Positions 4,201 to 62,204 of a stretch of DNA of 64,000 nt are shown here, piece by piece. The position numbers and the translations under genes were made by a program. The stretch is from a virus. Lineage: Duplodnaviria; Caudoviricetes. Within the stretch, counting starts at the first letter, position 1. Each line of letters starts with the position of its first letter. Location of the stretch: positions 121,391 through 185,390 of IMG/VR virus record IMGVR_UViG_3300021400_000138; one strand, 5' to 3'. Under the pieces are notes generated by a model. It had not been told where the DNA came from and made no database searches. It saw nothing but the letters and a program-made list of their open reading frames with translations.

Positions 4201-7200
4201 CTCCGAGAGAAACACCAATTTCCGCCAATAACTATGATTGAACCTCCATGGACTTCTTCATATTATTATATGATTGATCAATATTATCAATCTGTGCCTA
4301 ATAATTTTGGGAGAGGGTAGTAGTATCAGTTATAAGATTTCCATTTGCATCCATGCTACGACCAAGTTCATCAATAGTTTCACGAACTTTTTGATATGTA
4401 TCCGCAAGCTTTTCATTATTTTCATATAATGATCTGTAATAATCGCCAGCATTTGAAAATTCTTTTGGATAAAGCGTTGCCATTGATTGAGCAAGTTCTC
4501 CTATTTTTTGCTTATTATTTTCTGTTTCTTTATCTAATAAATCTGTTACAGTTTTAAGTTCGCCAGCTTTTGTTTCTAGATTTTCAATATATGCATTCCA
4601 CTGGTTAATATAACTATATACCCATCCATTTAAATTTCCAGGTAATGTAGAAGTATCAATTTTTGTTCTATTTCTAACGGCATCAATGCCAGCCTTTTGA
4701 AGAGCAGGATTATTCTAAATATTTGTTATTGCTCCCATATATTTTCCAGCATAAGCGTCAACCTTCTTCACATAAGAATCATAACCCTTTTGTGCTTTTT
4801 CCATTTCCGCATTTAATTTAATTATAGTTTCATTTGAAACCTTTGTTTCTTCTTTTATTTTTTCAAGTTCGGTCTCAAGATATCTATTTGCTCCAACATA
4901 TGTTTCACTCGCATTATAATAATTAGAATTCTGTATAGCCTCGCTTAAATCTTTAGATAAATTTTTACTCTTTGCGCTACCAAATGTTCTACTAGAAACA
5001 TTATAATTAGATTGCGCAGAAGCAGCCGCTAACTATGCGTATATAGATTGTTGCCCACGAGTACCAATATTGTTTCCTATTTGAGTAACGGATTGATACT
5101 TCTTTGCAATCTGATTAAGCTTTTCTTCTGCCTGTTTAACGGGAATATTTGCGAACTCTTCATTAAGATCATGAACTTTTGATCGAGCGGAAACATACTC
5201 ATTTTCTACGTTGATTATTTGAGTCATTGCTTTGCGATATTCTTCTGAACCATAACTGATTCTTCCTTGCGTCATATTAACTTCAAGTTCTTCTCTTAAT
5301 CTTACGGCTTCTATTCTCAACTTATCTGCTTGTTGTTTATATCTGTTCATTTCCTTAGAATAGCTTTGTGCAATCTATGTGCCGTCCTCAAGATAAGAGC
5401 CTGTTTTTATAATATAATCACGAGTTGTTGCCAAACTATTGGCTAAAGTTGCTTGCCAATCAGAAAGAGATTTATAATAATTATCAATATTATCCATTTT
5501 ATCAAATACTGATTGAACTAAAGATTGCGCATATTCCGCAGCAGATTGGTTAGCTTTTTCAAATTGCTCATTCATTTTTTCTTGGGCTTCTGTTACTGCG
5601 CTTGACAATGCATTTGCTTCAGCCAAACACTGATTATAATAAGCAATTTTATCTGCGTACATACCAAATTGAGAAGCATCAAGGAAATCTCCATTTTGTA
5701 AAGCATCAAATACATAACTTGGGAGCATTAATCCATTAAATGAATTTTTCGCTCCATTTAATCTGCTGTTAGCCGTTCTGGATTGACTCTTTAAATCATT
5801 GTAATTAATTTTGGACTGTTGATATGCAGCATTATTCTCATTTACTTGTGAACTCAAATTAAGTAGACTCTTTTCAATTTGATAATTAATTGACTCATAT
5901 GTTTTTCCGTAAGATTTGATTAATTTCTTTGCTTGACTGCCACCAAATATCCCGGACAATACTTCATTAAGTTTATTAATTCCAGATTGTCCAGTCATAG
6001 TAGATATAAAAGAATTAATACTTTGCATCGAGTTCTAGAGTTTACTAATAGCCTTTTCAAGATCTTCAAATGGAAGATTAATCATATCACTGTAAAGACT
6101 ACGAAGCTGATTTGATAAAGTCTAAATTTGATTAGAAGCATTTATAGCATTATCTGTTAATTGCATATACTGTTGGGCGGCTTCATATAAGGCTTTGCCA
6201 TGATCGGTAGATGTATCAATCTGGTCAATTCTAAAAGCTCCATTTCTAAGATCTTCCAAATTTATTTCATTAGCAAGACTAACCGAATACTCTAATTGAG
6301 TTGATTGTACAACTTTTAATTGATGTTGAAGATCATTAACCTAATTTTGTAACCATCTGTAATAATCGTTATCTCGATCACTTCCCATAGCGTTCATAGC
6401 GTTCTGATAGTCCGCTAATGCATACTACAAGTTCTTTTCAGCGTTTTTGTCAGTGGCGTAATATTTGTGATCAAATGCCTCTTTTATTGCCTCCTGTGTA
6501 TACGTTGTAGCCGCTTTTGAATTAGCCCATAATTCCTAACTAATAGCATTGATTTCACTTCCTATGAGTTGTTTCTTGGTTGCGGTATCAACATATTGTG
6601 TAATTTTGTCCGCAATTTTCTTTGTTTGATTAGAGAAGTATTGAAGTCTTCGCTATACAAGATCAATACTCTGGAACGAATATTGAATCTGATCAACTAA
6701 ATCATCAAATGCATTTCCTACATTATCGGCGGCATCTCCAACATCACGGGCTGCATCTCCAGCATCCCTTGCTGAATCATTATAATCATTAAGATCATCA
6801 ACACCGTCCGCTAATTTCTGGAAGAAATCATGAGTTCCTTCAGGTAGAATATTAAAAAATCCAGAAGCAGATGCCGTTGCAAATGAACGCATTCCTTCAT
6901 GCATTGTCCCGCTTGCAAATGCCGATTGACCACCTACAATTTTTCCAACTCCGTGGGCCGCACTATGCTTTATAAGATCCTCTGTTTGCTTTGCATTCAG
7001 AATAATTTCACCACGTTTAAGGTGTTCTACGTGCATTCCGGGAGGAAGTAATTCCCATGTGCCATCCCGTGTAATTCTGCTTTCCTGGCCGATTTCATTT
7101 ACGAGCGCATCTTCGTCTTGCTTTAATGCCACATCACCTCTTGCATGAGCTGGAAGCGAGAAAGTACCAGCTGCATGATGTGCGAATTTATCAGCAAGAA

Positions 7201-30232: not shown

Positions 30233-32296
30233 TTAAGATGGTGTATTATCAACAGGTGTTCCGTTTAGATAATAGCAACTATCAAAATGTGTTTTTTCCG
30301 GTCTATTATCTGTCACTGTACTATGTCCAACACGAAATACACAATTTGCAAATTGAATACCGCCACCATTCTCAATAAAAATTGGAGTATAACTACCGAA
30401 ATTGCAATTAGATAAAATAATTCCTTGAGAAGAAGCTAACTTGATTTTCCCATAGAATATTGAACATCCATTAAATATCTCGCCAGCTCCCATAGCATTT
30501 ATATCAAGGGCATACCCATCTCCACGTCTCCCACTGTCATAATCTTTTGAACCAGTGTGATTAATTGTACAGCCTACAAATGCTCCATGACTATTATTGT
30601 TATAATTTCCTGAAGAATTATCCATTAAAACGCCATGCATATTTGTACTAAAATCACAATTTACAAATACATTATTTCCTCCATTATTTATAGCTCCGTA
30701 GTAGTTTTCAAAGAAGCCTGATCCAGATATCCTATGAAATTCAGCAATTTTACCAAGTGCAATACCTGCATTACAATTTCGTACAAAAATGTTATTAATA
30801 TAACATCCGCCCTGCGGATTGTATCCTGTTCCAGATATATATATACCCGTTCCAGCAATACTACTTATACGAACATTTTCAACTTCACAACGGAAACGCT
30901 GAGAATCACTTGATCCTGTACCCTGAATTTTAATACCACAAGGTACAGAAGACGCTAATTCCCATTCAGAAGATGGAATTATATCTGTTAAAGAACCATA
31001 TATCGCCAGATTTTTTATTTTTGCATCGACAGACAAACTAACCATATAGTTAGACGTTGGATTTGATGTTTTAATTAGTCGTGTATTATTCCCACATCCT
31101 TCAATTGACTTATTTGCATTAATATCAATTTTATCAATATAATAATCACCCGGTGCAAGTCTGCATATATTTTTTGCTACCAGAATTCCTTCAATTTCTG
31201 GTCCACGATTATTTAATGTACCGTCTGGAAATATGTCATAGCCTGTATATAATGGATCATTGTTAATAGTAACCCATTCTGACCAAACATTATTAACCAT
31301 AACCCGTATATACATTATTTTTTTCGTTGCATAATTAAATGGCAGTCCTAGTTGAAAAAAATGACCTTGAGTGTTGTTCGTAAATGAAACAATACATATA
31401 CCATTTGCAGTAGGAAGATGCGCAAATCCAGCAGAAATCGCGTTAGTATGCACAGACACAATGGAATTAACTGGCAAGTCATCACAGTCAGAATAAGTTG
31501 ATTCCATATTACCAGCGGTTATAATCAATTCAGAAGATTGAATCGCACGGGGATTAAAAATGTTTAATGAGTATGGTACATAGCCAGAAGCGGCGTTACC
31601 TTTTTCTATTTGAAATTGTTTGATATCCCATATTGTTTTGCTATTATTACTGTATGCAATGACTATCCTTGATACTGTTTTTCCTGCTGTGGTAGTTCCG
31701 TACTTGTACAGATACGTACTCTGCGAATTGGAAAACTGGAACAGCAATGATGATGTGTTATCTGTATAGAAAGCATATACCCCCAAGCCATTATTTGTAA
31801 GCGCACTTGTTGTCTTTGCCTGCAAAGAAACAGTATACTGCTGTCCGGCTTCGTACTCTACTCCGTATATGTCACCATAAGTGTAAAGGGTATGAGGAAG
31901 AGCACTGAAAGTATCTCCATCTACAGTTATATTGGGTTTTGTCTTAAGTTTTTTTATGTCAAAAAGATTTACTCCCGTCTTTGATATCTGACTTATATCG
32001 TCTATTAAGTTTTCTATATTCTGATCTAAATCATCCCTTAAAGAAGAGACATCACTCACCAAACTACTATAATCCTCTGGAATACTATTCAAAATTTCTT
32101 GTGCCTGTTCAGCATAATATTTACTATTATCTTGATACCCAGGCTCTGTAGAAGATACCGCAATACCATTCCTAGTTCCCTTCGCATATGCCTCTGCATC
32201 ATAAGTTATTTTTTCTCCCATTACATCAACGTTTACATAATTCCCAGTAATAGGATCCTTATATTTCACCGCATTCGGTTTTAAAGTAATAGGCAT
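30233..32296 (-). CDS. Putative tail fibre/spike: carbohydrate-binding-like domain plus parallel beta-helix (pectate lyase-like), 687 aa
   Basis: NSKYYAEQA and NLFD...QIEKGNAASGYVPY modules. LAPGDYYI...IEGCGNNT starts a beta-helix with Asn/Cys-rich repeats. No TAG. Confidence 0.65.
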   Translation of the reverse strand: MPITLKPNAVKYKDPITGNYVNVDVMGEKITYDAEAYAKGTRNGIAVSSTEPGYQDNSKYYAEQAQEILNSIPEDYSSLVSDVSSLRDDLDQNIENLIDDISQISKTGVNLFDIKKLKTKPNITVDGDTFSALPHTLYTYGDIYGVEYEAGQQYTVSLQAKTTSALTNNGLGVYAFYTDNTSSLLFQFSNSQSTYLYKYGTTTAGKTVSRIVIAYSNNSKTIWDIKQFQIEKGNAASGYVPYSLNIFNPRAIQSSELIITAGNMESTYSDCDDLPVNSIVSVHTNAISAGFAHLPTANGICIVSFTNNTQGHFFQLGLPFNYATKKIMYIRVMVNNVWSEWVTINNDPLYTGYDIFPDGTLNNRGPEIEGILVAKNICRLAPGDYYIDKIDINANKSIEGCGNNTRLIKTSNPTSNYMVSLSVDAKIKNLAIYGSLTDIIPSSEWELASSVPCGIKIQGTGSSDSQRFRCEVENVRISSIAGTGIYISGTGYNPQGGCYINNIFVRNCNAGIALGKIAEFHRISGSGFFENYYGAINNGGNNVFVNCDFSTNMHGVLMDNSSGNYNNNSHGAFVGCTINHTGSKDYDSGRRGDGYALDINAMGAGEIFNGCSIFYGKIKLASSQGIILSNCNFGSYTPIFIENGGGIQFANCVFRVGHSTVTDNRPEKTHFDSCYYLNGTPVDNTPS

Positions 32297-33605: not shown

Positions 33606-34016
33606 TTAAATAGAATATTTATTGGTAAATAGATCATCGGTTACCATTTGGATAACCATATTAAATTCCTTCAATTCACGTTGATCAATATCATCAATAA
33701 TATAATCAAATATTTTTCGCTCATTTAACTTATCAAAATCAGATATAGAATTATTTTTATTAATTCGTTCTATGTCAGTATATGCATCAAACAATGCCAT
33801 ACATGTAGTAATATACTTATTTACAGAATCAACATGTATGATACATTTCTCCTCGTCAGATTCTATTGTAAAAGATTTATCAATAATGCTATTTGCAATT
33901 TTTACTTTCTTTTCGATTGGAATATATATGTCCTTAACATGACTTTTTATAAAGTTATACTTTTCACCATCTGCCTGTTTTTGATCAAAAAATTTTAAAA
34001 AAATATCAATCTTCAT
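33606..34016 (-). CDS. Hypothetical protein, paralog of the adjacent gene (possible tail assembly chaperone)
   Basis: ORF track. Shares the IHVDS...YTDIER pattern with 34013-34537. Confidence 0.6.
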   Translation of the reverse strand: MKIDIFLKFFDQKQADGEKYNFIKSHVKDIYIPIEKKVKIANSIIDKSFTIESDEEKCIIHVDSVNKYITTCMALFDAYTDIERINKNNSISDFDKLNERKIFDYIIDDIDQRELKEFNMVIQMVTDDLFTNKYSI

Positions 34017-34537
34017 CTATTAGAAACTTCCTTTAATGCGTTAATCAAATCGTCTGTATTCATATTACTAAGTACTGGTGCCAAAGTATTTCCAACAAGT
34101 GTCCCAAATCTTTCAACCTGAGATTTAATAAATTCATGCGGTTCATATTCATTTGCCAGCGTATCCTTTGCAACACACTCAATAATAGTATTAAATTCAT
34201 CCGCCTCAACAGAATTTACACCCGCCATAATTTTGGCAAGTGCGCCACATTTTTGAAGCATATCATATTCTTCGAGAATTGGATCTTCTTCGCCTCGCTC
34301 AATATCTGTATACATATCTACAAAAGAAATCTTTGTTAACATCATTTTTACACAAGAATCAATATGAAGTTTCTTTGTTTTATTTTCATCTCCTGTTTCA
34401 ATATAATATGAAGAATTGATAATGGCATCCGCTCGTGCCATTTTTTCACTTAACGATACATATTTATTGGCCAAAATATGGTCATTCAAAATAAGCGAAT
34501 TCTCAGTATATGCATTTACAAAATCTTTATAATTCAT
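34013..34537 (-). CDS. Hypothetical protein, possible tail assembly chaperone
   Basis: ORF track, RBS AGGAGG. Helical protein between the major tail and TMP genes. Confidence 0.6.
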   Translation of the reverse strand: MNYKDFVNAYTENSLILNDHILANKYVSLSEKMARADAIINSSYYIETGDENKTKKLHIDSCVKMMLTKISFVDMYTDIERGEEDPILEEYDMLQKCGALAKIMAGVNSVEADEFNTIIECVAKDTLANEYEPHEFIKSQVERFGTLVGNTLAPVLSNMNTDDLINALKEVSNR

Positions 34538-38380: not shown

Positions 38381-38382
38381 GC

Positions 38383-38475
38383 TAAGCCCGCTGGAATTCG
38401 AATCCAGATTACCTCCTTCAGAGGGATATCACGCTTTTAGAGAGCGGTGCACTAGTCCAGTTGTGCTACGGGCCT
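38383..38475 (-). tRNA. Amber suppressor tRNA, anticodon CUA (probably Gln-inserting), 93 nt with long extra arm
   Basis: AGGCCCG TA GCAC AACTGGACTA GTGC A CCGCT CT-CTA-AA AGCGT GATATCCCTCTGAAGGAGGTAAT CTGGA TTCGAAT TCCAG CGGGCTT A. Anticodon at 38438-38440. Confidence 0.85.
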
Positions 38476-38537
38476 ATATATTGGACAGTAAAAAATACCG
38501 TCCTTAAAATAAAAAGAGCAGATAATCCACTCTCAAA

Positions 38538-38930
38538 TTACAAATAATGTTTATAAAAATAATCGTTTATCATATCTACTACTTTATCCTCAAGATGATA
38601 TTCTTTAATCCTTTTGTTTATATCAGCATATAAATATTTATCCGCCACAGGATGATTTAACACATCGCCCATAACACGAAAATCATGTTCCGCACAATCA
38701 ACAAATGACTCATCATCTGTATGATAAAATACGACGTTTGTAGTAGCCTTATATTCTTCAGATTCATACTCACAAATAAGATATGTGTCATCCGGATAGC
38801 TGTTTTCTTTAAGCCAGGATATCAAACTATCATCTGGTTCGTTTTCGAATTCTAAGATCATATCTGCTTCAACTCTATATACAGCACCACAAATAGATAA
38901 CACTTTGTTGATCTTATACATCTTAAACAT
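38538..38930 (-). CDS. Hypothetical protein, 130 aa
   Basis: RBS AAGGAG before ATG at 38930 (MFKMYKINK), within ORF 38538-39038. Confidence 0.6.
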   Translation of the reverse strand: MFKMYKINKVLSICGAVYRVEADMILEFENEPDDSLISWLKENSYPDDTYLICEYESEEYKATTNVVFYHTDDESFVDCAEHDFRVMGDVLNHPVADKYLYADINKRIKEYHLEDKVVDMINDYFYKHYL

Positions 38931-39102
38931 AAGATTTCTCCTTTTCATCAAAATAAAAAAGAGCGGGACATCAATCCTGCTCAACAAAATAATCGTAAAA
39001 AATGGGGTCGACCTACCACCGCAAAAGTAGCAGATCAACCCCGTGAATAACGATGGTGAACCACCGCTATTGAGCTTTTCTTAAATAATCTACTTTCACT
39101 AA

Positions 39103-39525
39103 TCAATTCTTTTTATTATATTTGTTATGCCTGTCAAATTTCTTTTCTTTTGTTTCCGAAGGATTCTTGAATTCTCTTTCTTCTTTCACTTCATCTTTAG
39201 AAGAATCTGTCTCGACAGGCTCAACCACATCTTCGGGTTTTTCTTCTACCTCATCAACAATATCAAGAATCTCTTTCAGTACAGGAACTACAGGAGTTCC
39301 ACCATGAATAACATAACTCAAATCACCAAGTGCCTCCAGGGCGGCTTTGGCAGCTTCTTTTGTAATCTCTTTACCTCTATACTGTTGCCAGATATCATAG
39401 ATATCTTTGCATTTATAATCATGAACAAGATATCTCCAAGTTTCAAGAGGATCATATTCTTTACATCCGTGAGCGCAATATTGATATTCTACGCCACAGC
39501 AAAAACATTTTCTTTCGTGAGCCAT
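39103..39525 (-). CDS. Hypothetical protein with N-terminal Cys-rich Zn finger
   Basis: RKCFCCGVEYQYCAHGC. RBS AAAGGAG. Confidence 0.7.
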   Translation of the reverse strand: MAHERKCFCCGVEYQYCAHGCKEYDPLETWRYLVHDYKCKDIYDIWQQYRGKEITKEAAKAALEALGDLSYVIHGGTPVVPVLKEILDIVDEVEEKPEDVVEPVETDSSKDEVKEEREFKNPSETKEKKFDRHNKYNKKN

Positions 39526-39567
39526 TATTATCTCCTTTCTATGAATGTTATTAGGTACAATTAATAT

Positions 39568-40743
39568 TTATATATAAGCTTTAACTCTCATCTGAGTAAA
39601 GCGTGATTTTCTTAATTCACTAGGTTTATATTTGTCGAATATCCAAGTACCGAGTTTTGAATTTTCTGCATCGGCGTGAGTGAGGATATTACCAGATAGA
39701 TATGATTCTATGGAAAATGGAATGTTGATGCCTAGTCCACGGCGTTTGGCGTTGATGTATTCTTCAAGCTGTTCAGGTGTGTTATTATGTGTGCCGTAAA
39801 GATTATGAAACGAATCAACGATCTTAGCCTGATGGTGCAAATCACACAAACATATTCCATTTTTAACGTCTAATCTTAAATCTTTATATTTAGAAAATGG
39901 ATTAATATGATGTACTTCTAAATTTTCCCGACTGCCACAGCACTGGCATGTATAAAAGTCTTTTTTCAATACATTGTTCCTCCAATCCGCATATTCTGTC
40001 GAATTTCTACACCTTTGATTTTCTTTTAAGATACCACCACGCCACTGCGGAGATTCTTCACCTCTCGGTATATTTGCAATCGCTTTTTCTTTTGCACATT
40101 CTGGACAAATATATTTTTCCTTATTTATATCTAAAATACGTTTTTTATAATCGTCATGAATTCCATTCTCACATTTAAACCAAACATATTCTTTGCTTCC
40201 ATATGTTTTGTCGAACGGACCAAACAAATTTTTATCCGACCACACCTCAACATATTCTGGATGTTTATAGCCAAATGAATTTGTTAGACATACACGTTGT
40301 CCAGTACAATATGGACATTTGTCATGACCATTAGAATAATTATTTGCAGCGACATCAAAATCATCATGGTTAGGATTGTCTAAACATCTCAACCATATTT
40401 TATTTTTACTAGATCTATCTATGTCAAAATATGACTTTTCATTCTTATCAGACCAAAGCATATTTAAATAATCTAATCCATATTTATCAATTATATATTG
40501 ACCTATAGAATTACAGGCATGACAAATACAATAATATCCTCTTTTCTTATACCCTTTAACAACGTTTCCAATACAAATCATTCTTGATTCATGTAATTCA
40601 TCTGGACATTTAAGCCAATATTTTTTATTTGTAGTCGAACTAACTAAATTTGGGGAAATATCATTTAACTTATAGTCCCACAGTTCTAATAATTCATTAT
40701 AGTTGTTATCTATACAAAACTGTTCAAAAGAATAATTAATCAT
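39568..40743 (-). CDS. Free-standing HNH homing endonuclease with repeated Zn-ribbon (WSDKN...W.KC) domains
   Basis: CQCCGSRENLEVHHI...NGICLCDLHH...FHNLYG. RBS AAGGAG before ATG at 40743. No TAG. Confidence 0.85.
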   Translation of the reverse strand: MINYSFEQFCIDNNYNELLELWDYKLNDISPNLVSSTTNKKYWLKCPDELHESRMICIGNVVKGYKKRGYYCICHACNSIGQYIIDKYGLDYLNMLWSDKNEKSYFDIDRSSKNKIWLRCLDNPNHDDFDVAANNYSNGHDKCPYCTGQRVCLTNSFGYKHPEYVEVWSDKNLFGPFDKTYGSKEYVWFKCENGIHDDYKKRILDINKEKYICPECAKEKAIANIPRGEESPQWRGGILKENQRCRNSTEYADWRNNVLKKDFYTCQCCGSRENLEVHHINPFSKYKDLRLDVKNGICLCDLHHQAKIVDSFHNLYGTHNNTPEQLEEYINAKRRGLGINIPFSIESYLSGNILTHADAENSKLGTWIFDKYKPSELRKSRFTQMRVKAYI

Positions 40744-40768
40744 GTTCCATTTCTCCTTATAATGAAAT

Positions 40769-40853
40769 CTCCTAAATTTAAACAAAATAAAAGAGCGGGG
40801 TAGGAGTTCCCCCGCTCTTGTCAGTTAGTTCATGACGCTAACCTATTTATTTT
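40769..40853 (-). promoter_or_regulatory. Structured leader with the same architecture as 38295-38380
   Basis: Stems AAAATAAA/TTTATTTT, GTTAG/CTAAC and AAGAGCGGGG/CCCCGCTCTT. Loop CTCCTA is complementary to a downstream TAGGAG. Confidence 0.5.
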
Positions 40854-40919
40854 TTAAAAGGCCACTAGCTTTAAAACTAATGACCCAGAATATTACTATT
40901 ATATTATCAGAAAAACTTA

Positions 40920-42548
40920 TTAAGCAGCAGCAACACCGCTGATAACAAGGTCTTCTTCTGGATACTTATAATTTAAAATAATAACTTATTTTAAATCTTC
41001 GTTCATACAAAGACGCTACTCTTTGCACAGTTCTCTAACGAACTTCTTATACTTTCATATAAGCACAGACTATATCTTATCCATACCGTATTACTACGGG
41101 TTAGGCGAAACCACTTCGGCTGTCAATCGCTTACAGCCTACTCCTCTCAAGAAGGATAGTCGTTGAACCTTATTCTATTCGAATCTTGGCTGCTGATTTC
41201 CTATTGTCTAATCGGCACTTAGGATTTAACCATATACCATACAATAGATTTTTTCTGCTTTCGCAACATTCGCGTTTACACATATTTCATTGTTACGCTG
41301 TAGTTCTATTGTCTTTAAGGATTTCCAGCAATTCAGTTTCTTTATTCAGTGAAATAATCACTATCACATACAAGTTTCCCTATATGCTTACCATCCAAAT
41401 TTAAATTGTCAAAAAATATAGCAATTTAAAGCGAATTATTCGATAAATGTAATAGAGCGACTGTGTGCCAGCACAATAATCCACGTTCAGATTACCAGAG
41501 AAATCGACCTCTTGTGTCTCTGCATCCAGAGAAATAGTCATAGAGGGATCGGCGGCAAATCTCGGAATTACTACGTAGCAAGGTTTAAGATCGTTATTAC
41601 ACGGATCACCATAAGCACAGAAAAGTGTAAGCTTAACAAGACCCGGAAGATCTTTAGTAGTGTTGGAGAGCATAGCCCCAGAAACAACATCACGTTCATA
41701 CTTTACAAGATACTGAATAGGCTGATCTTCGCCAGCTGCAGGAGCAGTAAAGACAGCGTTAGAACCAGTACCAGTTACAAGTGCCGCTGAATCTGCTGCA
41801 CTAAGAGCAGGAGCATTTGCTCCATTACCATAAAGGCCAATTACACGAAGAGTACCTGTCTTAAGATCAGGAATCTGAATAGCCTTTCCAGCTTCAACAA
41901 TATAAATCTTCGGCATCTGAATAGCGGCAGAAGCAGAAGCATATGTAATTTCTTTACCAGACTGAGCATTAAGAGCTGCTGGATGGAGAAGTGCGTTTGT
42001 AGCGGTAAAGGTACCAGTTTTTGTTCTATAACTTGTACGGATTACATTACCCTTTTTATCAACAATATCGCTAGAATCAGCACTAATTTCAATGGATGCA
42101 CCAGACAGCTGATCAAGAGCATATTTCAGATTGTCATTGTCATCCTGAGCTACACCATAAAGTATTTCCTTTCATACCCTGACTTTCGTCATATTTAATA
42201 GGGAATAGCCTATATCTTCACCCTATACTAATAGGGGGTTGGCGCTTCGATTTAAGAGATTTTCACTCACTGAGAATTTCACTCAGCCCTACTCCTGTTG
42301 TGGAATTTCACCACTTAAAGGATAGGCGTTTAACGTTACTGCGAAACAGTTTTCGCACAGGATTGCCATATTACTGGTGTATGTAACTTAGGTGTTCCCT
42401 GTTAGCCAATTTACTAATTATCATTTCCTATAATTCCTAAACGTTAAATTGACACCCTAGATTTCTAGGTTCACCAACTATCGACATACGTTACCGTATG
42501 AAGCGACCAAAATTAATCGATGTAATGATTACCCAATTTAAAAGCCAT
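40920..42548 (-). CDS. Major tail (tube) protein, 267 aa, split by two group I introns
   Basis: Exons 42548-42516, 42168-41443 and 40964-40920. MAFKLGNHYID|EILYGVAQ...LYYIY|YPEEDLVISGVAAA. RBS AAGGAGG. Follows the neck genes. No TAG. Confidence 0.8.
40965..41442 (-). mobile_element. Group I intron (major tail intron 2), 478 nt
   Basis: R element GGTTCAACGACTATC, S element TAAGATATAGTCTG. Exon ends in U, intron ends in G, frame restored. Confidence 0.85.
42169..42515 (-). mobile_element. Group I intron (major tail intron 1), 347 nt
   Basis: P1 CGAU|/GUCG, P7 GCCTA/TAGGC, ends GAAAG, frame restored. Confidence 0.9.
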
Positions 42549-56180: not shown

Positions 56181-57827
56181 TTAAACATTTTCATCTGTAA
56201 TGTTTCTGGTTCTCTCAGCACTGCCAGATATTTCATCATCACTTACACGGTTTCTACCTGGAGTACTTTTATCATTACCAGTTGATCTACGAGTAGCAGT
56301 AGTATCTCCCCATGCAGTGTTGTAACTTGATAACAAAGGAATCATAATATCTTTAATACCTATTGCATTTTCGAATAATATCTAGCAATATGCCTCATAG
56401 GGCGTATATCCTTGAGATTCCAAAAATACCATGGCGCTCGATCCAAGTGTTGCCGCCTATCTTGTAGCTTCAATAAAACTTTCTTCATTATATTGCGTTT
56501 GTCTTAATACGCTAAAAATGTAGTTATCACTTATATTTTTATCTATATAATATTGGAAATTAGCTTCCAATCGCTCTACCAATAAAAAAGAAAAAGCTGC
56601 ATCATTAGCAATTGAATTTTTAATTCCAGCGGCAGAATTAGCGTCTCCAGATGAAACGACAACTTCAGATACACCTACAGTCTTATACAAATTCTTTATG
56701 GACTGACTTACTATATCAGCCGAATCCGCCGTGGTATCTTTATCCCATGTAATTTCAGAATCGATCATACCTGGCAAAACACCAACGCCTACCAATGGCG
56801 GAGCTATTTGCTCTATAGCATCTTTATAAGCATTGGCTATTTCAAGAGACACGGCAAAATCGTCTACAACTCCATTACTGCTATCTAAAAGCGGTACTTT
56901 CAAAAGAAGCAACGCCCAGTTATTTAATTCCTGGCGATCAGCAATTAAATCTTGATAATCAAGAACTTCTAACAGATTTGTAAATATTCCAGTCATAAAA
57001 GGCAGCGGTGTTTGAAATTCATCATCCTGCATACCACAAATCAAAGTGATCGTTTTTTCAGGCGGTACAATAAACCATCTTGCTGCTTGTTTGTCAGAAG
57101 CATTCTAGTAATCGCGCCATGCCTTCTACCATGGTTCATCCCAGCATCCTGACGTATCGCCATTTATGCCCTCAACAAAAATAATATTTTGACCAATAGA
57201 AAAATAAGTTAAGTCAAAAGCAATAACCCACGTACCCGCTTCAGTCTTTCCTTGAATTCGACAATATTCTAATGGTAACATGTGCAAAAACATACCTTCT
57301 TCCCCAAAGTCATATACATAACTAAAGAAAGCACCATCTCTAATAGCGATAGCAATAGCAGTAGAAAATTCAGATTTAATATTAAATCTCTAGATATGCC
57401 TTAACACATTCTCATATTCATTAGTTATTTTTTCGACATCAGGCTTTTCAGTAAATTTCATTTTTTGAGTAATATTATAATTATATAGAGGTAAAGTGGC
57501 ATAGTATAATATAATTTTCCTATATAGTGTCGAAACCCTCCATAAAAATTTAGATACGCCAACTAGTTGCATTCGAAAATTTCCAGGATTCGCAAGGTAC
57601 TATTTCACCAATGATTTAGTATATTGAATATACGTCTATCCATTATTACGCTTAACATCCTGCAAAATTAATTCTTTAAGTTTCTCTGTTTTTTTAAAAT
57701 CTAATGCTGTCGGTCTATTCACAACTTCCTGTTCCTAATTTTTTTTCTTTGAAACAAGCTGTTGTGACATAAGACCTTCGCGATTATCAGTAAGCGCCTC
57801 CTGCGCTTTGTTTGATTTTCTGGGCAT
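56181..57827 (-). CDS. Portal protein, 548 aa; TAG=Gln
   Basis: RBS AAGGAGG, ATG at 57827, directly after terL. ORFs 57390-57572 and 56457-57044 are in frame. C-terminal PLLSSYNT...GRN. Confidence 0.8.
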
Positions 57828-57843
57828 GAAGCGCCTCCTTTCT

Positions 57844-59832
57844 TTAGTTGTTATATATTGACGAACGACGAGGTGGAGTGATGGAGATGTAGCGAAGAAG
57901 ATCAGTCGAAGACTGCTTGGGTTTTAACTTCAATTCCAATTGACATGCACACCAATAATTATAAGCAATGGAAGAATATCTATCCTTACGCATACCAGAT
58001 TGTTCTTTCACCTTTATATTTCCATTCTTTACCTCATGATCCAATTTAATTAGTTCATACTCGGCCATAGTTGTTTGTAAATACGGCATTTTAATATATG
58101 CCTGGTCTGATGGGGAGAGTTTAGAATAGGTTTTATATGATTTTACCAATTCCTCTTCACATTCTTGTTCTGAAATAAGAAAGCTAATTCTACCATTCTA
58201 TATTCCATTTCTAAGCAACACACATATTTCGTTATTGAAAGTTGCACCAGCTTTTACTGACCAAACAACTTTATTTGCATCTTTAACTTTACATCTAATA
58301 GCCATGTCTTCATCATTAATGCACGTTAATGCTTTATATGTTTTCCCTGTCGAAGAATCATATTGATCCTTACAAATAAAATCGAAAATTCCAATTCCTA
58401 GTCCGCCTGTATCAACCACTAAGTCAGTACATTTGTATTCATAGAAATAACGCATAACAATAATCCCAAGTTCGTCAGTTGTTAACCCTTCAAATGTTTC
58501 TCCATATACTACATTTGAATGATAACTTACATCATCCTATTGAATTGCGCTATTAATATATAAAGCAGCCGCGTCATTTTTCTTTTTCTTCGTAGATCCC
58601 ATAAGGGCTACGTCCACCGACAAAATGCGCTTCTCTGTTGGCTATACAACAGGAAGCTTAATTTTATCATTATAAAATTTTAATGGTAATAATGCATTTT
58701 TTATTCTTCTTCGTTTATTAATTTCATCAAATTTAAATAGATTATCTCCATCATCACCTATCCACAAACATTCCATTTCCATCATAAAAGCAAGTTCGCT
58801 AAAATCGGCCTCGGATTTTTCATCGATGACCTATTCTCTAGAAAGCAAGCCTTCTTTAATTGATAGCTGATATGGTAGTCCACAAACAAAGTACTTCTTT
58901 GTATCATCAAAGAAATTAACAACATAAGCTTGAAGCTTTTTCCAAGCCCAGGAACTTTTAAAATATGCGCTGGACATATATATTTCTTTATTACGCTCTT
59001 GCAAATGTGCATATTCCGGTTTATTTAAATAACCAGGTTGTCTTGGACTGGTTAAGAATTTTCTAATAACAAGGTTAAGAATGGTCTCATCAACCATACG
59101 GAATTCATCAACTCATTTTGTTACCTTAGAAGCTTTTTATCTTCTAATTCTTGAAGTTTCCTACAAGATCAGCATATATTTTCACCTTAATCAGATGCTG
59201 GACGCTCTTGGGAAAATTATCTCATTTCCTATGCGTTACAATATACAATAATGTATTATCTCGGTATTGCCATGCATATGTTTAGGTTTTACCGATTTCG
59301 CCCAGTTTCAATTATATATTGCTATATAATCAAGCAATTAATTTACTATGATGTTTGCTCTTGCACCACGAGCATTATCCGTACTGGTTCTACTTGTAAT
59401 CCATGATCCATTCTTGAACATTATTATTGCATCATTCTATCCAATATTACATTTTTCTATCTCCGTACATAAAATAGGAGACATCTTCATTAATTCATCC
59501 TATATTTTTAGCAAAACCCCATTCGCTTGTTTAAGTGTTCCAGAACATACAACGATTTTACTTCCTGGATATAAAATACATCTTACAACACAGAAGAGAG
59601 CAGTAAGCCAACTCTTAGACATTCCTCTTGCGGCAATAAACATAAAATAATTATAATGCATCATTGCCCATATAAGAATTTTCTAAAACAGCTTTAGATG
59701 TATTCCTAGAAATTCTTCCACGAAACGTTCTGGATTATTTCTGTAATATGCAGCTCTCCAAGCAATAGTCTACATAATTTTCTGTTCTTTGTCCTGAGCA
59801 ATTTCTTGAACAGATTTTTTTCTTTCGCCCAT
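57844..59832 (-). CDS. terL: Terminase large subunit, 585 aa, split by a group I intron; TAG=Gln
   Basis: Walker A AARGMSKS, RGARANIIV|VDE Walker B, nuclease motifs LSVDVA and RKDRYSS. Exons 59832-59345 and 59113-57844. Confidence 0.9.
59114..59344 (-). mobile_element. Group I intron in terL, 231 nt
   Basis: P1 AGU|AA/UUGCU, P7 GCATA/TATGC, ends GTAACAAAATG. Restores NIIVVDEFRM. Confidence 0.9.
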
Positions 59833-60890
59833 TATAATTCTTTTTCAGAAGATCCAAATATCTGATCAAATAATGTCTCAGAATCTGCATCTTCATCATA
59901 CTGTGGTTTATCCACGGTATATTTCTTTATAAACCTTTCATAAGTTTGAGAAAATGCATTCTTCAAACCCATCATTCTCGCCATATGACCTTTGAAAAAT
60001 ACATCCAAGTAAAGCCCTATTTTATTAACAGATTTGAATTCTTCATCTGGCTCAGGTACAGGTTTTTCATTTTCCCATTTTTGAATTAATTGACCAAAGG
60101 TCTTTGCTTCAGTAAGAGCATTAGAATTATTCTGATTTGGCTTAAGAGACATGCTGCCCATAAGATCCTGAAGAGTTTTATCTAACTCTTTTGTATCCTT
60201 ACTATTCTTCTGGGCCTTATCAATCTCAAGTTCTTTAAAACAGATTCTCTTAAAAAGAATTTCCTGTGCTTTATTTTCACACGCATAACGTTTTATCCAA
60301 TCTTGATATTCTGATTCCAAGAATAGAAGATCAGAATTTGTATACCCGTCACCAAATCTTTTCTTTGCTTGTTTTAAAGTCCTGGAATTTTCATTAATTT
60401 CTTCTTCGTCTTTATCAAAATAATCAGCTGGCATTTCAGAATCTTTCCATGTTTTGCCACGCCAATTTGGAAGCGACTTGATAACAGTTATATAATGTGA
60501 CCAGGCAGTGTTTCTATGTTTATCCTGAACATCTTCTGCACATGAAGTGAGCGCAGATTGATACATTGAATCAATATACGGAAGATCCATCATTTCAAGA
60601 ACTTTCATTGTTTTACTACGATTGTCTGTATACTAATTTGTTTTTTTATCATAGTCACAAGCCATACCTATTAAACATTTTTTGCAAATAGGAAATAAAC
60701 CACTAGAATATTTTTTATCTGTATAAAAACCATCAATCGCATGAAACTCATTGCACATGTGGCAATAGTATAAATTACCATCTAAAATTCTATTATAATC
60801 TTTAGCGAGATTATTATAAGCTTGCCTTATCTATGCAACACCTGTTTTTTTAACCTCTTCCTCGGTTAATGCTGGCTTAAGCCGTATCAT
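59832..60890 (-). CDS. Zn-finger protein upstream of terL (possible terminase small subunit), 352 aa; TAG=Gln
   Basis: ATG at 60890, CHMC...FY...PICKKC, TFGQLIQKWENEKPVP. Coupled to terL by TAATG. Confidence 0.6.
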
Positions 60891-60909
60891 TATCTCACCT
60901 ACCTTTTAA

Positions 60910-61203
60910 TCATATATACAAAACCAAATACTAATCACACTTCGTATGATCACAACACGAAACAATCGTTACAACATTATCCTTCGCAGAATAAATCAAT
61001 CTATGCCAATCGTTTATCCTTCTAGTACATTCTTTTCTATTCAGCAAAGCTTCTGGTCTACCTAATCCTCTGATTAATCCGTCTTGATTAATGCTATTGA
61101 TCAACGAATCAATTTTCTTTGCAATCTTCGGATTCTTTGCCTACCAGGAACTATAATCTTTATATGCCTGTTTACTCCATTGTATTTTATATCTGCGTTT
61201 CAT
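60910..61203 (-). CDS. yoeB: YoeB/Txe-family ribosome-dependent mRNase, orphan; TAG at codon 21
   Basis: IQWSKQAYKDYSSW(Q)AKNPKIAKKIDSLI...GLGRPEAL...TRRINDWHRLIY...IVSCCDH matches the YoeB pattern DYLYWQ..GKPEPL..SRRI..EHRLVY..CRYH. Confidence 0.8.
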
Positions 61204-61289
61204 ATATTTCTCCTTTTCATCATACAAAAAGAGCAGAAGAGTACCGAAATACTCCCCCGCTCTACGGGGAACACATATTCCCATCCAAG

Positions 61290-61362
61290 TCGAATATGTA
61301 CGATTTGAACGTCTCCCCAACATCCCAAATGTCGTGTGCTACCAGATTACACCACATACTCG
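61290..61362 (-). tRNA. tRNA-Pro(UGG) with atypical acceptor/T stems
   Basis: CGAGTATG TG GTGT AATCTGGTA GCAC A CGACA TT-TGG-GA TGTTG GGGA GACG TTCAAAT CGTA CATATTCG A. Confidence 0.7.
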
Positions 61363-61369
61363 CTATAAA

Positions 61370-61437
61370 TTCTTCTTGCAGAATCGAACCACAATCAGGA
61401 GAGGAGAGTAGATCCTCTACCTGAGTACCAACAAAGA
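61370..61437 (-). ncRNA. tRNA-like element lacking a D arm (degenerate tRNA or ncRNA)
   Basis: T arm TGTGG-TTCGATT-CTGCA, long arm TCAGG.AGAGGA/TCCTCT.CCTGA, weak terminal pairing TCTT/AAGA. Confidence 0.35.
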
Positions 61438-61649
61438 CTTATCTAATCCACATCACAAAGCTACAAACAAGAGATAACAAACCAACTGCGCCAAGCCCAG
61501 CAACAATCTCTCTTCCAATTATCTTTAAATAATCCAATGGACTCACCTCCAATATAAAAAATTGGGCAGCATATAAACCAAAACTTATCTGCCCATGAGT
61601 ACTAGTAACTCAAGTTTTATGGATTACGGCTTTGTTAGCCAAATATCAA

Positions 61650-62204
61650 TCAGGGCCATTCTCCAAGCGGGAAGCCAAGTTTGCGTTCAACGTTCGTATT
61701 AAAATACACACCCTTTGTTCCTTCGCCCGTAAGAACCTCGGTAGCAATATCCTGATAAAGAGTACTGATCAGACCAAATGCATCATTCAGATTATCCGCC
61801 GGGATCTGTACTACACAATTCTGGAAGATTACATATACCATTGAAAACCAAGCATATCCATCATCAGCAGGAGATACCGCCATAACAAATGCGGGATTCT
61901 TCTCAAAAGCAACCTCAAATAGTTCTTTCTTATTAATGAATGTTCTATTACTCGGAACACCATCAATAAAAACTTTCAACGTCACATTACCAAATTCATA
62001 TTCATCTGGAAGGATCTGACAAAGTGCAGCCACTTTGTCGCCATTATTACAAGCAATAACAACTGTTGGTGCCTCACCACTATAATCAACATTAAAGGCA
62101 ATCTGAGGATCGCCATCAAACAGCGCCTCAAGTTTTTTAGTAATCACAACCCAAGGCGGAGAAATCTTAAATCTTACATCACTCATAATCCTTTTCCTCC
62201 TCAT
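61650..62204 (-). CDS. Conserved hypothetical protein
   Basis: ORF track. Probable start MSDVRF at 62186 after GAGGAGG. Confidence 0.7.
   Translation of the reverse strand: MRRKRIMSDVRFKISPPWVVITKKLEALFDGDPQIAFNVDYSGEAPTVVIACNNGDKVAALCQILPDEYEFGNVTLKVFIDGVPSNRTFINKKELFEVAFEKNPAFVMAVSPADDGYAWFSMVYVIFQNCVVQIPADNLNDAFGLISTLYQDIATEVLTGEGTKGVYFNTNVERKLGFPLGEWP

Follow-up and report, generated by a model that had tools for sequence, protein, structure and literature searches.

A solo YoeB-family gene with in-frame amber codons at the head of the late block of a TAG-recoded gut phage

Toxins of the YoeB family are known from the YefM-YoeB and Axe-Txe systems of E. coli, S. aureus and S. pneumoniae (PDB 2A6Q, 6L8E, 7BWF and 8YXV). 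We analysed a gene of this family situated in a 64,000-nt stretch of phage DNA (the window), which forms the last 64 kb of a complete virus record of 185,390 bp with 107-bp terminal repeats. The window protein shares with these toxins the family, the predicted fold and the catalytic Glu, His and two Arg residues. In contrast to them, it has no antitoxin gene and is not part of an autoregulated two-gene operon; it carries Thr-Lys in place of the C-terminal Tyr, as well as changes at the equivalents of K49 and E63; and its gene belongs to a phage late operon and requires suppression of UAG.

Some phages carry complete yefM-yoeB or relB/dinJ-yoeB pairs. Such pairs, with YoeB homologues 29-42% identical to the window protein, were found in Pseudomonas phage vB_PaeS-D14H, in S. 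aureus phage SA 1306 Kay and in three human-gut phage scaffolds. The antitoxin gene is located immediately upstream of yoeB in all five (YefM/Axe in two, RelB/DinJ in three), whereas the window copy has a hairpin and a Shine-Dalgarno sequence in this place.

The closest functional analogy is RegB of phage T4, an mRNA-inactivating nuclease of the YoeB/RelE fold for which no antitoxin is known and perhaps none is needed (PMC3014915). The analogy concerns role and fold only, and we claim no common membership: the RegB sequence shows no similarity to that of YoeB and the active sites differ, whereas the window gene is a bona fide YoeB homologue. Furthermore, regB is an early gene whose product, aided by S1, cuts GGAG in Shine-Dalgarno regions, while the window gene heads the late block. 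A solo yoeB would bear on the question of how phages recruit toxin-antitoxin genes, for instance for a RegB-like shut-off of host or early mRNAs.

Recoded stop codons have been proposed to block the premature or accidental synthesis of harmful late products such as those of lysis genes and a homing endonuclease (Borges et al., bioRxiv 10.1101/2021.08.26.457843). The window phage is similar to the phages described there in having recoded stops in late genes and a suppressor tRNA. The text of Borges et al. makes no mention of toxins of toxin-antitoxin systems, whereas the gated product in the window is a classical type II toxin whose partner was either lost or never present. The gating of harmful late genes by the code has thus been described before, and its extension to an antitoxin-less type II toxin is absent from that work. 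Support for such code-locking comes so far mainly from codon statistics; a 97-codon toxin gene with one early TAG, an effect easily read from growth and the matching tRNA encoded in the same genome would offer a compact test case.

The yoeB gene and its predicted product

With TAG read as Gln, the gene is a YoeB/Txe-family ORF of 97 codons plus a TGA stop on the minus strand (61203..60910); the start codon ATG occupies 61203-61201 and the TGA 60912-60910. The original prediction had these coordinates right and left the strand unsaid. A strong Shine-Dalgarno motif, AAGGAG, can be read at 61210..61215 (minus strand), 6 nt ahead of the ATG. Translated with table 11, the frame closes after 20 residues at the TAG at 61143-61141.

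The translated sequence matches the PF06769 profile with 70.3 bits (cut-off 27) and the NCBIfam equivalog TIGR02116 with 58 bits (cut-off 51.8); the PHROG label is 'RelE-like toxin'. Phmmer comparison with the solved YoeB chains of S. aureus and E. coli gave E-values from 5e-17 to 5e-11. The AlphaFold (AF2) model, a predicted rather than a solved structure, has a mean pLDDT of 85, and Foldseek superimposed it on YoeB structures with TM scores of 0.86-0.90 and rmsd of 1.2-2.1 A; the model thus has the RelE/YoeB microbial-RNase fold. Judged by sequence and by predicted fold, the gene is certainly a genuine member of the YoeB family.

Alignment with E. coli YoeB pairs E51 with E46, R62 with R59, R68 with R65, H86 with H83 and T87 with Y84. 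The four residues that make up the catalytic set in E. coli (E46, H83, R59 and R65) are all present, so that the original reading of YoeB motifs (the Glu, RRI, HRL and the C-terminal His) proved correct, as did the replacement of the C-terminal Tyr by Thr. This replacement is unusual: Tyr occupies the position in 120 of 136 representative homologues, and Thr is found there solely in the subclade of the window protein. In E. coli YoeB the Y84A mutant is inactive and Y84F is impaired, and Tyr84 is needed for activity (PMC3814384). Residues that touch the A-site codon in the E. coli enzyme, the base-reading K49 and the base-stacking E63 (PMC6821326, PMC3814384), are changed as well: the equivalent of K49 is Leu (Lys or Arg in 119 of the 136 representatives) and that of E63 is Trp. 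One loop is shorter by two residues.

The variant active site is conserved among the nearest relatives. The cluster formed at 90% identity has 11 members; a further homologue, P0002, shows about 61-67% identity. Across these sequences E51, H67, R68 and the tripeptide H86-T87-K88 are invariant and R62 is nearly so, the tripeptide being kept down to 61% identity. Lys88, adjacent to Thr87, could take over phosphate contacts. Nuclease activity of the window protein is plausible, though not assured, because the Glu, the His and both Arg residues are kept and the variant is conserved; activity, specificity or codon preference may differ from those of E. coli YoeB. The His-Thr-Lys variant may define a YoeB subgroup with altered chemistry or codon preference.

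Two in-frame TAG codons interrupt the gene under the standard code. The TAG at codon 21 (61141..61143, minus strand) corresponds to the glutamine of the family's W-Q pair; this position is Gln in 69 of the 136 representative homologues, as expected for a recoded Gln codon. Translation with table 11 and the alignment both agree with the original prediction that the amber codon at the conserved Gln would leave a stub of 20 residues. Full-length YoeB requires UAG to be read as Gln. As a possible way around the stop, we considered a restart at TTG 61104, which under the standard code would give a 57-aa C-terminal fragment; we rejected it, as no Shine-Dalgarno sequence precedes this TTG.

The other TAG, at codon 91 (60931..60933, minus strand), is located four codons beyond the His-Thr where YoeB proteins usually end, and the original prediction of a second TAG near this end was accurate. 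Past residue 91 the tails of the cluster members vary in sequence and in length (7 to 14 residues) with the downstream DNA, and residues 88-97 of the model have pLDDT below 50. For these two reasons the TAG at codon 91 marks the functional end of the window protein, with residues 1-90 as the functional core and residues 91-97 as an unconstrained read-through tail. This TAG may be the ancestral stop of an inserted cassette, described below, now read through into the flanking DNA; the cassette border lies only ∼10-20 nt further on.

Few further copies came to light. Searches of viral contigs by protein, by alignment and by a degenerate DNA pattern gave none beyond the phage's own record, and no copy was found in genome contigs by alignment or pattern. 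Among metagenome contigs, L023 has the sole further yoeB copy. In 38 shared codons the two copies have six synonymous and no non-synonymous differences, and the gene is, by this comparison, under purifying selection, because all six codon differences are synonymous. The L023 copy has the same Shine-Dalgarno motif and also carries TAG at codon 21. For a goat-gut variant with ∼5% divergence, the differences listed include no change at 61141-61143. RNA-Seq contigs from one run, of what is probably the source sample, cover 59800-59959 and 61592-61870 and none extends over yoeB, though contigs of this kind cannot show absence.

An inserted cassette without an antitoxin gene

The gene was predicted to lie ahead of the terminase operon, and this is right. 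The next gene on the same strand is the first of the packaging operon (59832..60890), which belongs to phrog_3314, has two TAGs and is conserved in 22 related loci that have no yoeB. It is followed by the large terminase (57844..59832, minus strand; phrog_38 and others), encoded in two ORFs, 59832..59338 (164 aa, the ATPase part) and 59097..57844 (417 aa), which are separated by a gap of 240 nt; an Rfam search of the gap for an intron gave no match at E<=1. The portal gene (phrog_2739) is located further downstream in the operon. On the other side of yoeB, the upstream neighbour is a tRNA-Pro(UGG) gene (61289..61362, minus strand), a part of the phage backbone common to L002, L003 and L009.

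YoeB is an addition to this backbone. It is absent within 6 kb in all of the 22 related loci, which were fetched via the downstream phrog_3314 protein, and five related full records contain neither YoeB nor YefM. Similarity to the relatives in blastn alignments resumes at 60910-60923, where the yoeB frame ends. In the relative L009, ∼10 nt separate tRNA-Pro from the conserved leader ATGATTAAAAGG that precedes the phrog_3314 gene; the window has ∼373 bp inserted between tRNA-Pro and this leader. The inserted cassette (60916..61288, minus strand; ends +/-6 bp) consists of a stem-loop, the Shine-Dalgarno sequence and yoeB. The TGA stop of yoeB is outside the insert and belongs to the backbone leader. 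yoeB is therefore an accessory single-gene insertion between tRNA-Pro and the first packaging gene.

The stem-loop (61220..61263, minus strand; ∼14-15 pairs followed by a T-run) resembles a terminator, is placed directly upstream of the Shine-Dalgarno sequence and travels with the gene. In L023 it is kept with one base change and a small indel in the loop, and in 6 of the 11 cluster members it forms part of over-long translated N-termini. An Rfam scan of 57500-62000 (E<=1) returned tRNA-Pro alone; the hairpin matches no known family.

In L023 the stem-loop, Shine-Dalgarno sequence and ORF recur directly behind a gene for a GIY-YIG homing endonuclease (67-843), which has four in-frame TAGs. The slot that yoeB occupies in the window is filled in L003 (∼5000-5985), L005 and L006 (upstream of 6001 in both) by a similar gene, and the copy in L003 has a match to NUMOD1, a domain of homing endonucleases. 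This slot, bounded by the tRNA cluster and the phrog_3314 gene, is a hot spot for accessory genes. The cassette therefore sits in intergenic hot spots of the kind used by free-standing homing endonucleases, and probably moves from one to another.

Two features next to the insert are recorded here in their own right. The leader ATGATTAAAAGG(A/T)GG (window 60902-60913, with a matching place in L001-L009) is found ahead of the phrog_3314 start in the majority of the close relatives shown, regardless of what is located further upstream; beyond serving as a ribosome site, it may act e.g. in late-operon control or as a recombination joint. Between a 184-aa gene and tRNA-Pro, a small ORF (61439-61552, minus strand) with a strong ribosome site, GGAGGTG, encodes a hydrophobic single-helix peptide of 32-37 aa that has no family match and could be a small membrane peptide.

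The gene was described as an orphan, with no YefM-like ORF next to it, and a search of the rest of the genome for yefM had been called for; the orphan status holds both locally and genome-wide. The 82 nt upstream of yoeB are taken up by the stem-loop and the Shine-Dalgarno sequence, followed by tRNA-Pro; no ORF fits there, so that the adjacent antitoxin gene characteristic of type II systems is missing. The cassette has no room for a second gene or for a promoter. In the complete genome, six-frame profile searches at E<=10 gave no match to the antitoxin families PF02604, TIGR01552, PF04221 and PF12910, including no match to YefM, and the genome contains a single copy of PF06769. Two other kinds of partner were considered and set aside: a peptide from the preceding gene, as the upstream neighbours of the cassette copies differ, and an antisense or type III RNA antitoxin, as neither repeats nor an antisense promoter-like site were seen at yoeB.

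The recoded late block

The virus is a complete 185-kb, SPbeta-like phage of the ruminant gut in which TAG is recoded to Gln; it was found repeatedly in ruminant gut metagenomes (13 studies). With TAG as a sense codon, the window has ORFs of 4354 and 2313 codons that contain 32 and 30 TAGs, respectively. A tRNA gene with a CUA anticodon (38381..38476, minus strand) presumably provides the reader of UAG. The minus-strand late block has a TAG frequency of 7.9 per 1000 codons, versus 1.1 for the plus-strand block, and the phage accordingly shows both marks of a recoded phage, a CUA tRNA and late genes rich in TAG beside early genes poor in it. The identity of the host and its code are inferred.

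In the late block TAG makes up 18% of Gln-type codons and is present in 35 of 52 genes; in total, 187 in-frame UAGs occur in the late mRNAs of the phage. The minus-strand genes just upstream of yoeB have 0.5 TAG per 1000 codons, and yoeB is the first TAG-bearing gene of the block. Its own TAG density equals the block average: at the late-block rate, a gene of 97 codons has a probability of 0.53 of containing one TAG or more and of 0.18 of containing two or more. With two TAGs in 97 codons, the gene shows no preferential recoding above the background of the module, and its TAGs are no more than chance expectation for the late block. The earliest Gln positions of the gene, codons 8 and 12, use CAA and CAG.

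Within late genes, the first TAG tends to come early. Its mean relative position among Gln positions is 0.21, compared with 0.27 for shuffled labels (P ∼0.02-0.04; late-block genes in window 1-60900 and genome 102-121 kb), with the caveat that gene starts were called automatically. This bias fits selection for early translational blocks and gives a hint in that direction. The other toxin gene of the phage, which is MazF-like and has a presumed partner gene upstream (without a family match), is free of TAG. Also present in the genome are three genes for tyrosine recombinases and an Ant-like gene, by which the phage is possibly temperate.

The place of the CUA tRNA varies among related phages. 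In close relatives it belongs to a Pro/Thr/Asn tRNA cluster that immediately precedes the packaging operon, where the TAG-rich block begins (L002 503-575; L005 3891-3982; L006 4521-4595), and in the window phage it is found 23 kb further into the late block.

Antitoxin-free YoeB and the role of the amber codon

The explanation that we regard as best, and to which we give about an even chance, is that yoeB encodes a solo, late-expressed YoeB-type nuclease which does without an antitoxin because its late timing and the late code keep it silent until then, with nothing out of the ordinary about the TAG at codon 21. YoeB would be made along with other late proteins once the CUA tRNA of the phage is active, and would act as a ribosome-associated mRNA endonuclease in the shut-off of host messages, early phage messages or both. 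No antitoxin would be needed, because the toxin would be made only late, in a doomed cell about to lyse; the position in the late operon, the hairpin that resembles a terminator and the late code would together provide this confinement. Codon 21 would be a recoded Gln codon like others in the late module, and the gating effect of its TAG, though real, would be a by-product. This TAG is no distinctive gate, because 35 of the 52 late genes also contain TAG, with equal density, and it is fully explained by the ordinary drift of CAG to TAG in a recoded late module. If correct, the gene would show a type II toxin persisting under selection without its antitoxin.

Several points go against this explanation. 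The change of Tyr84 to Thr, at a position where Y84A abolishes the activity of E. coli YoeB, and the presence of Leu and Trp in place of K49 and E63 make an active nuclease less certain. RelE-type nucleases prefer UAG and CAG in the A site, and an A-site nuclease made late could cut the phage's own UAG-rich mRNAs, with their 187 in-frame UAGs. Finally, if the phage is temperate, it matters that the gene stays silent in the lysogen, and selection could have acted on the TAG after all. Loss of the Tyr and the phage's own UAGs likewise complicate the roles proposed for the toxin, host shut-off and the clearing of stalled ribosomes.

The original prediction went further and suggested that the genetic code replaces the antitoxin. 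Several parts of this proposal stand: production of the toxin depends on UAG reading, the gene is an orphan, a CUA tRNA is present and yoeB heads the late block. The part that does not stand is the TAG as a gate specific to this gene. Replacement of the antitoxin by the code is plausible, and not yet distinguishable from drift. In its strong form, which we find possible but on the unlikely side, the protein antidote was shed and UAG selected in its stead, so that the toxin fires when a suppressor tRNA is present, either late in the phage's own cycle or in a lysogen superinfected by a related recoded phage, in which case it would be a code-sensing suicide switch. The early TAG would be favoured as an antitoxin substitute, untranslatable in the standard code, during early infection, in lysogeny, under leaky transcription or after transfer to other hosts; that it was selected as such a safety catch we consider rather doubtful. 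An extension would have the toxin of a lysogen fire when a phage with a suppressor tRNA switches the code, i.e. a code-sensing abortive-infection device. Selection of the codon draws support from L023, where TAG is kept at codon 21 though 6 of the next 17 codons differ synonymously, and from the goat-gut variant, where ∼5% divergence brought no change at 61141-61143 among the differences listed; yet a single site kept in copies that are nearly identical is weak evidence. The TAG-free MazF-like toxin with its presumed partner gene, the possible temperate lifestyle and the cassette's own upstream terminator-like hairpin, with no room for a promoter, are in favour too. So is the early position of first TAGs among the Gln positions of late genes (P ∼0.02-0.04), although the start calls behind this bias are automatic. 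Against selection of the codon, CAA and CAG stand at the two earliest Gln codons (8 and 12), and the TAG density of yoeB is that of the block. Should the phage lysogenise, the safety-catch reading would gain, because silence under the host code would then matter more.

Two further explanations were weighed. The protein might be inactive as an mRNA nuclease, a neo-functionalised or weakened YoeB fold serving as a ribosome binder or in another RNA-binding role; its existence without an antitoxin would then be explained. Thr at the position of Tyr84 (Y84A is dead in E. coli YoeB; PMC3814384), Leu at that of K49, Trp at that of E63 and the loop shortened by two residues all point this way, but the general base Glu and the general acid His are invariant in the subclade, both Arg residues are kept (R62 nearly invariant), purifying selection on yoeB is strong and the invariant Lys88 could supply phosphate contacts; we hold loss of nuclease function to be improbable. 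Still less probable, in our estimate, is a cognate antitoxin that escaped recognition, be it a novel small phage protein or RNA, or a YefM or RelB of the host. Antitoxins are diverse and short, which speaks for it. Against it, the cassette borders leave no co-travelling gene, the upstream neighbours differ (tRNA-Pro in the window versus a GIY-YIG endonuclease gene in L023), the four antitoxin profiles have no match in the complete genome, and the downstream gene is conserved in relatives that lack yoeB.

Sizeable late-block genes of 687, 136, 174, 166, 405 and 171 aa (window coordinates 30233-32296, 33606-34537 and 38538-41916, minus strand) have zero TAG amid TAG-rich neighbours; such genes may be needed before the code switch or may be very highly expressed. 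A search with PF04998 for a late RNA polymerase of YonO type, which would ignore hairpin terminators, gave no match. Outside the window, at genome position 5103-6752 (minus strand; L029) and followed by a gene for an HNH endonuclease, a 549-aa protein matches phrog_8308, a profile of 847 positions. Its distant homologues occur in Enterocloster phages, one of them annotated as 'RNA-dependent RNA polymerase', and the protein may be a split late RNA polymerase of YonO type, a suggestive match at this stage.
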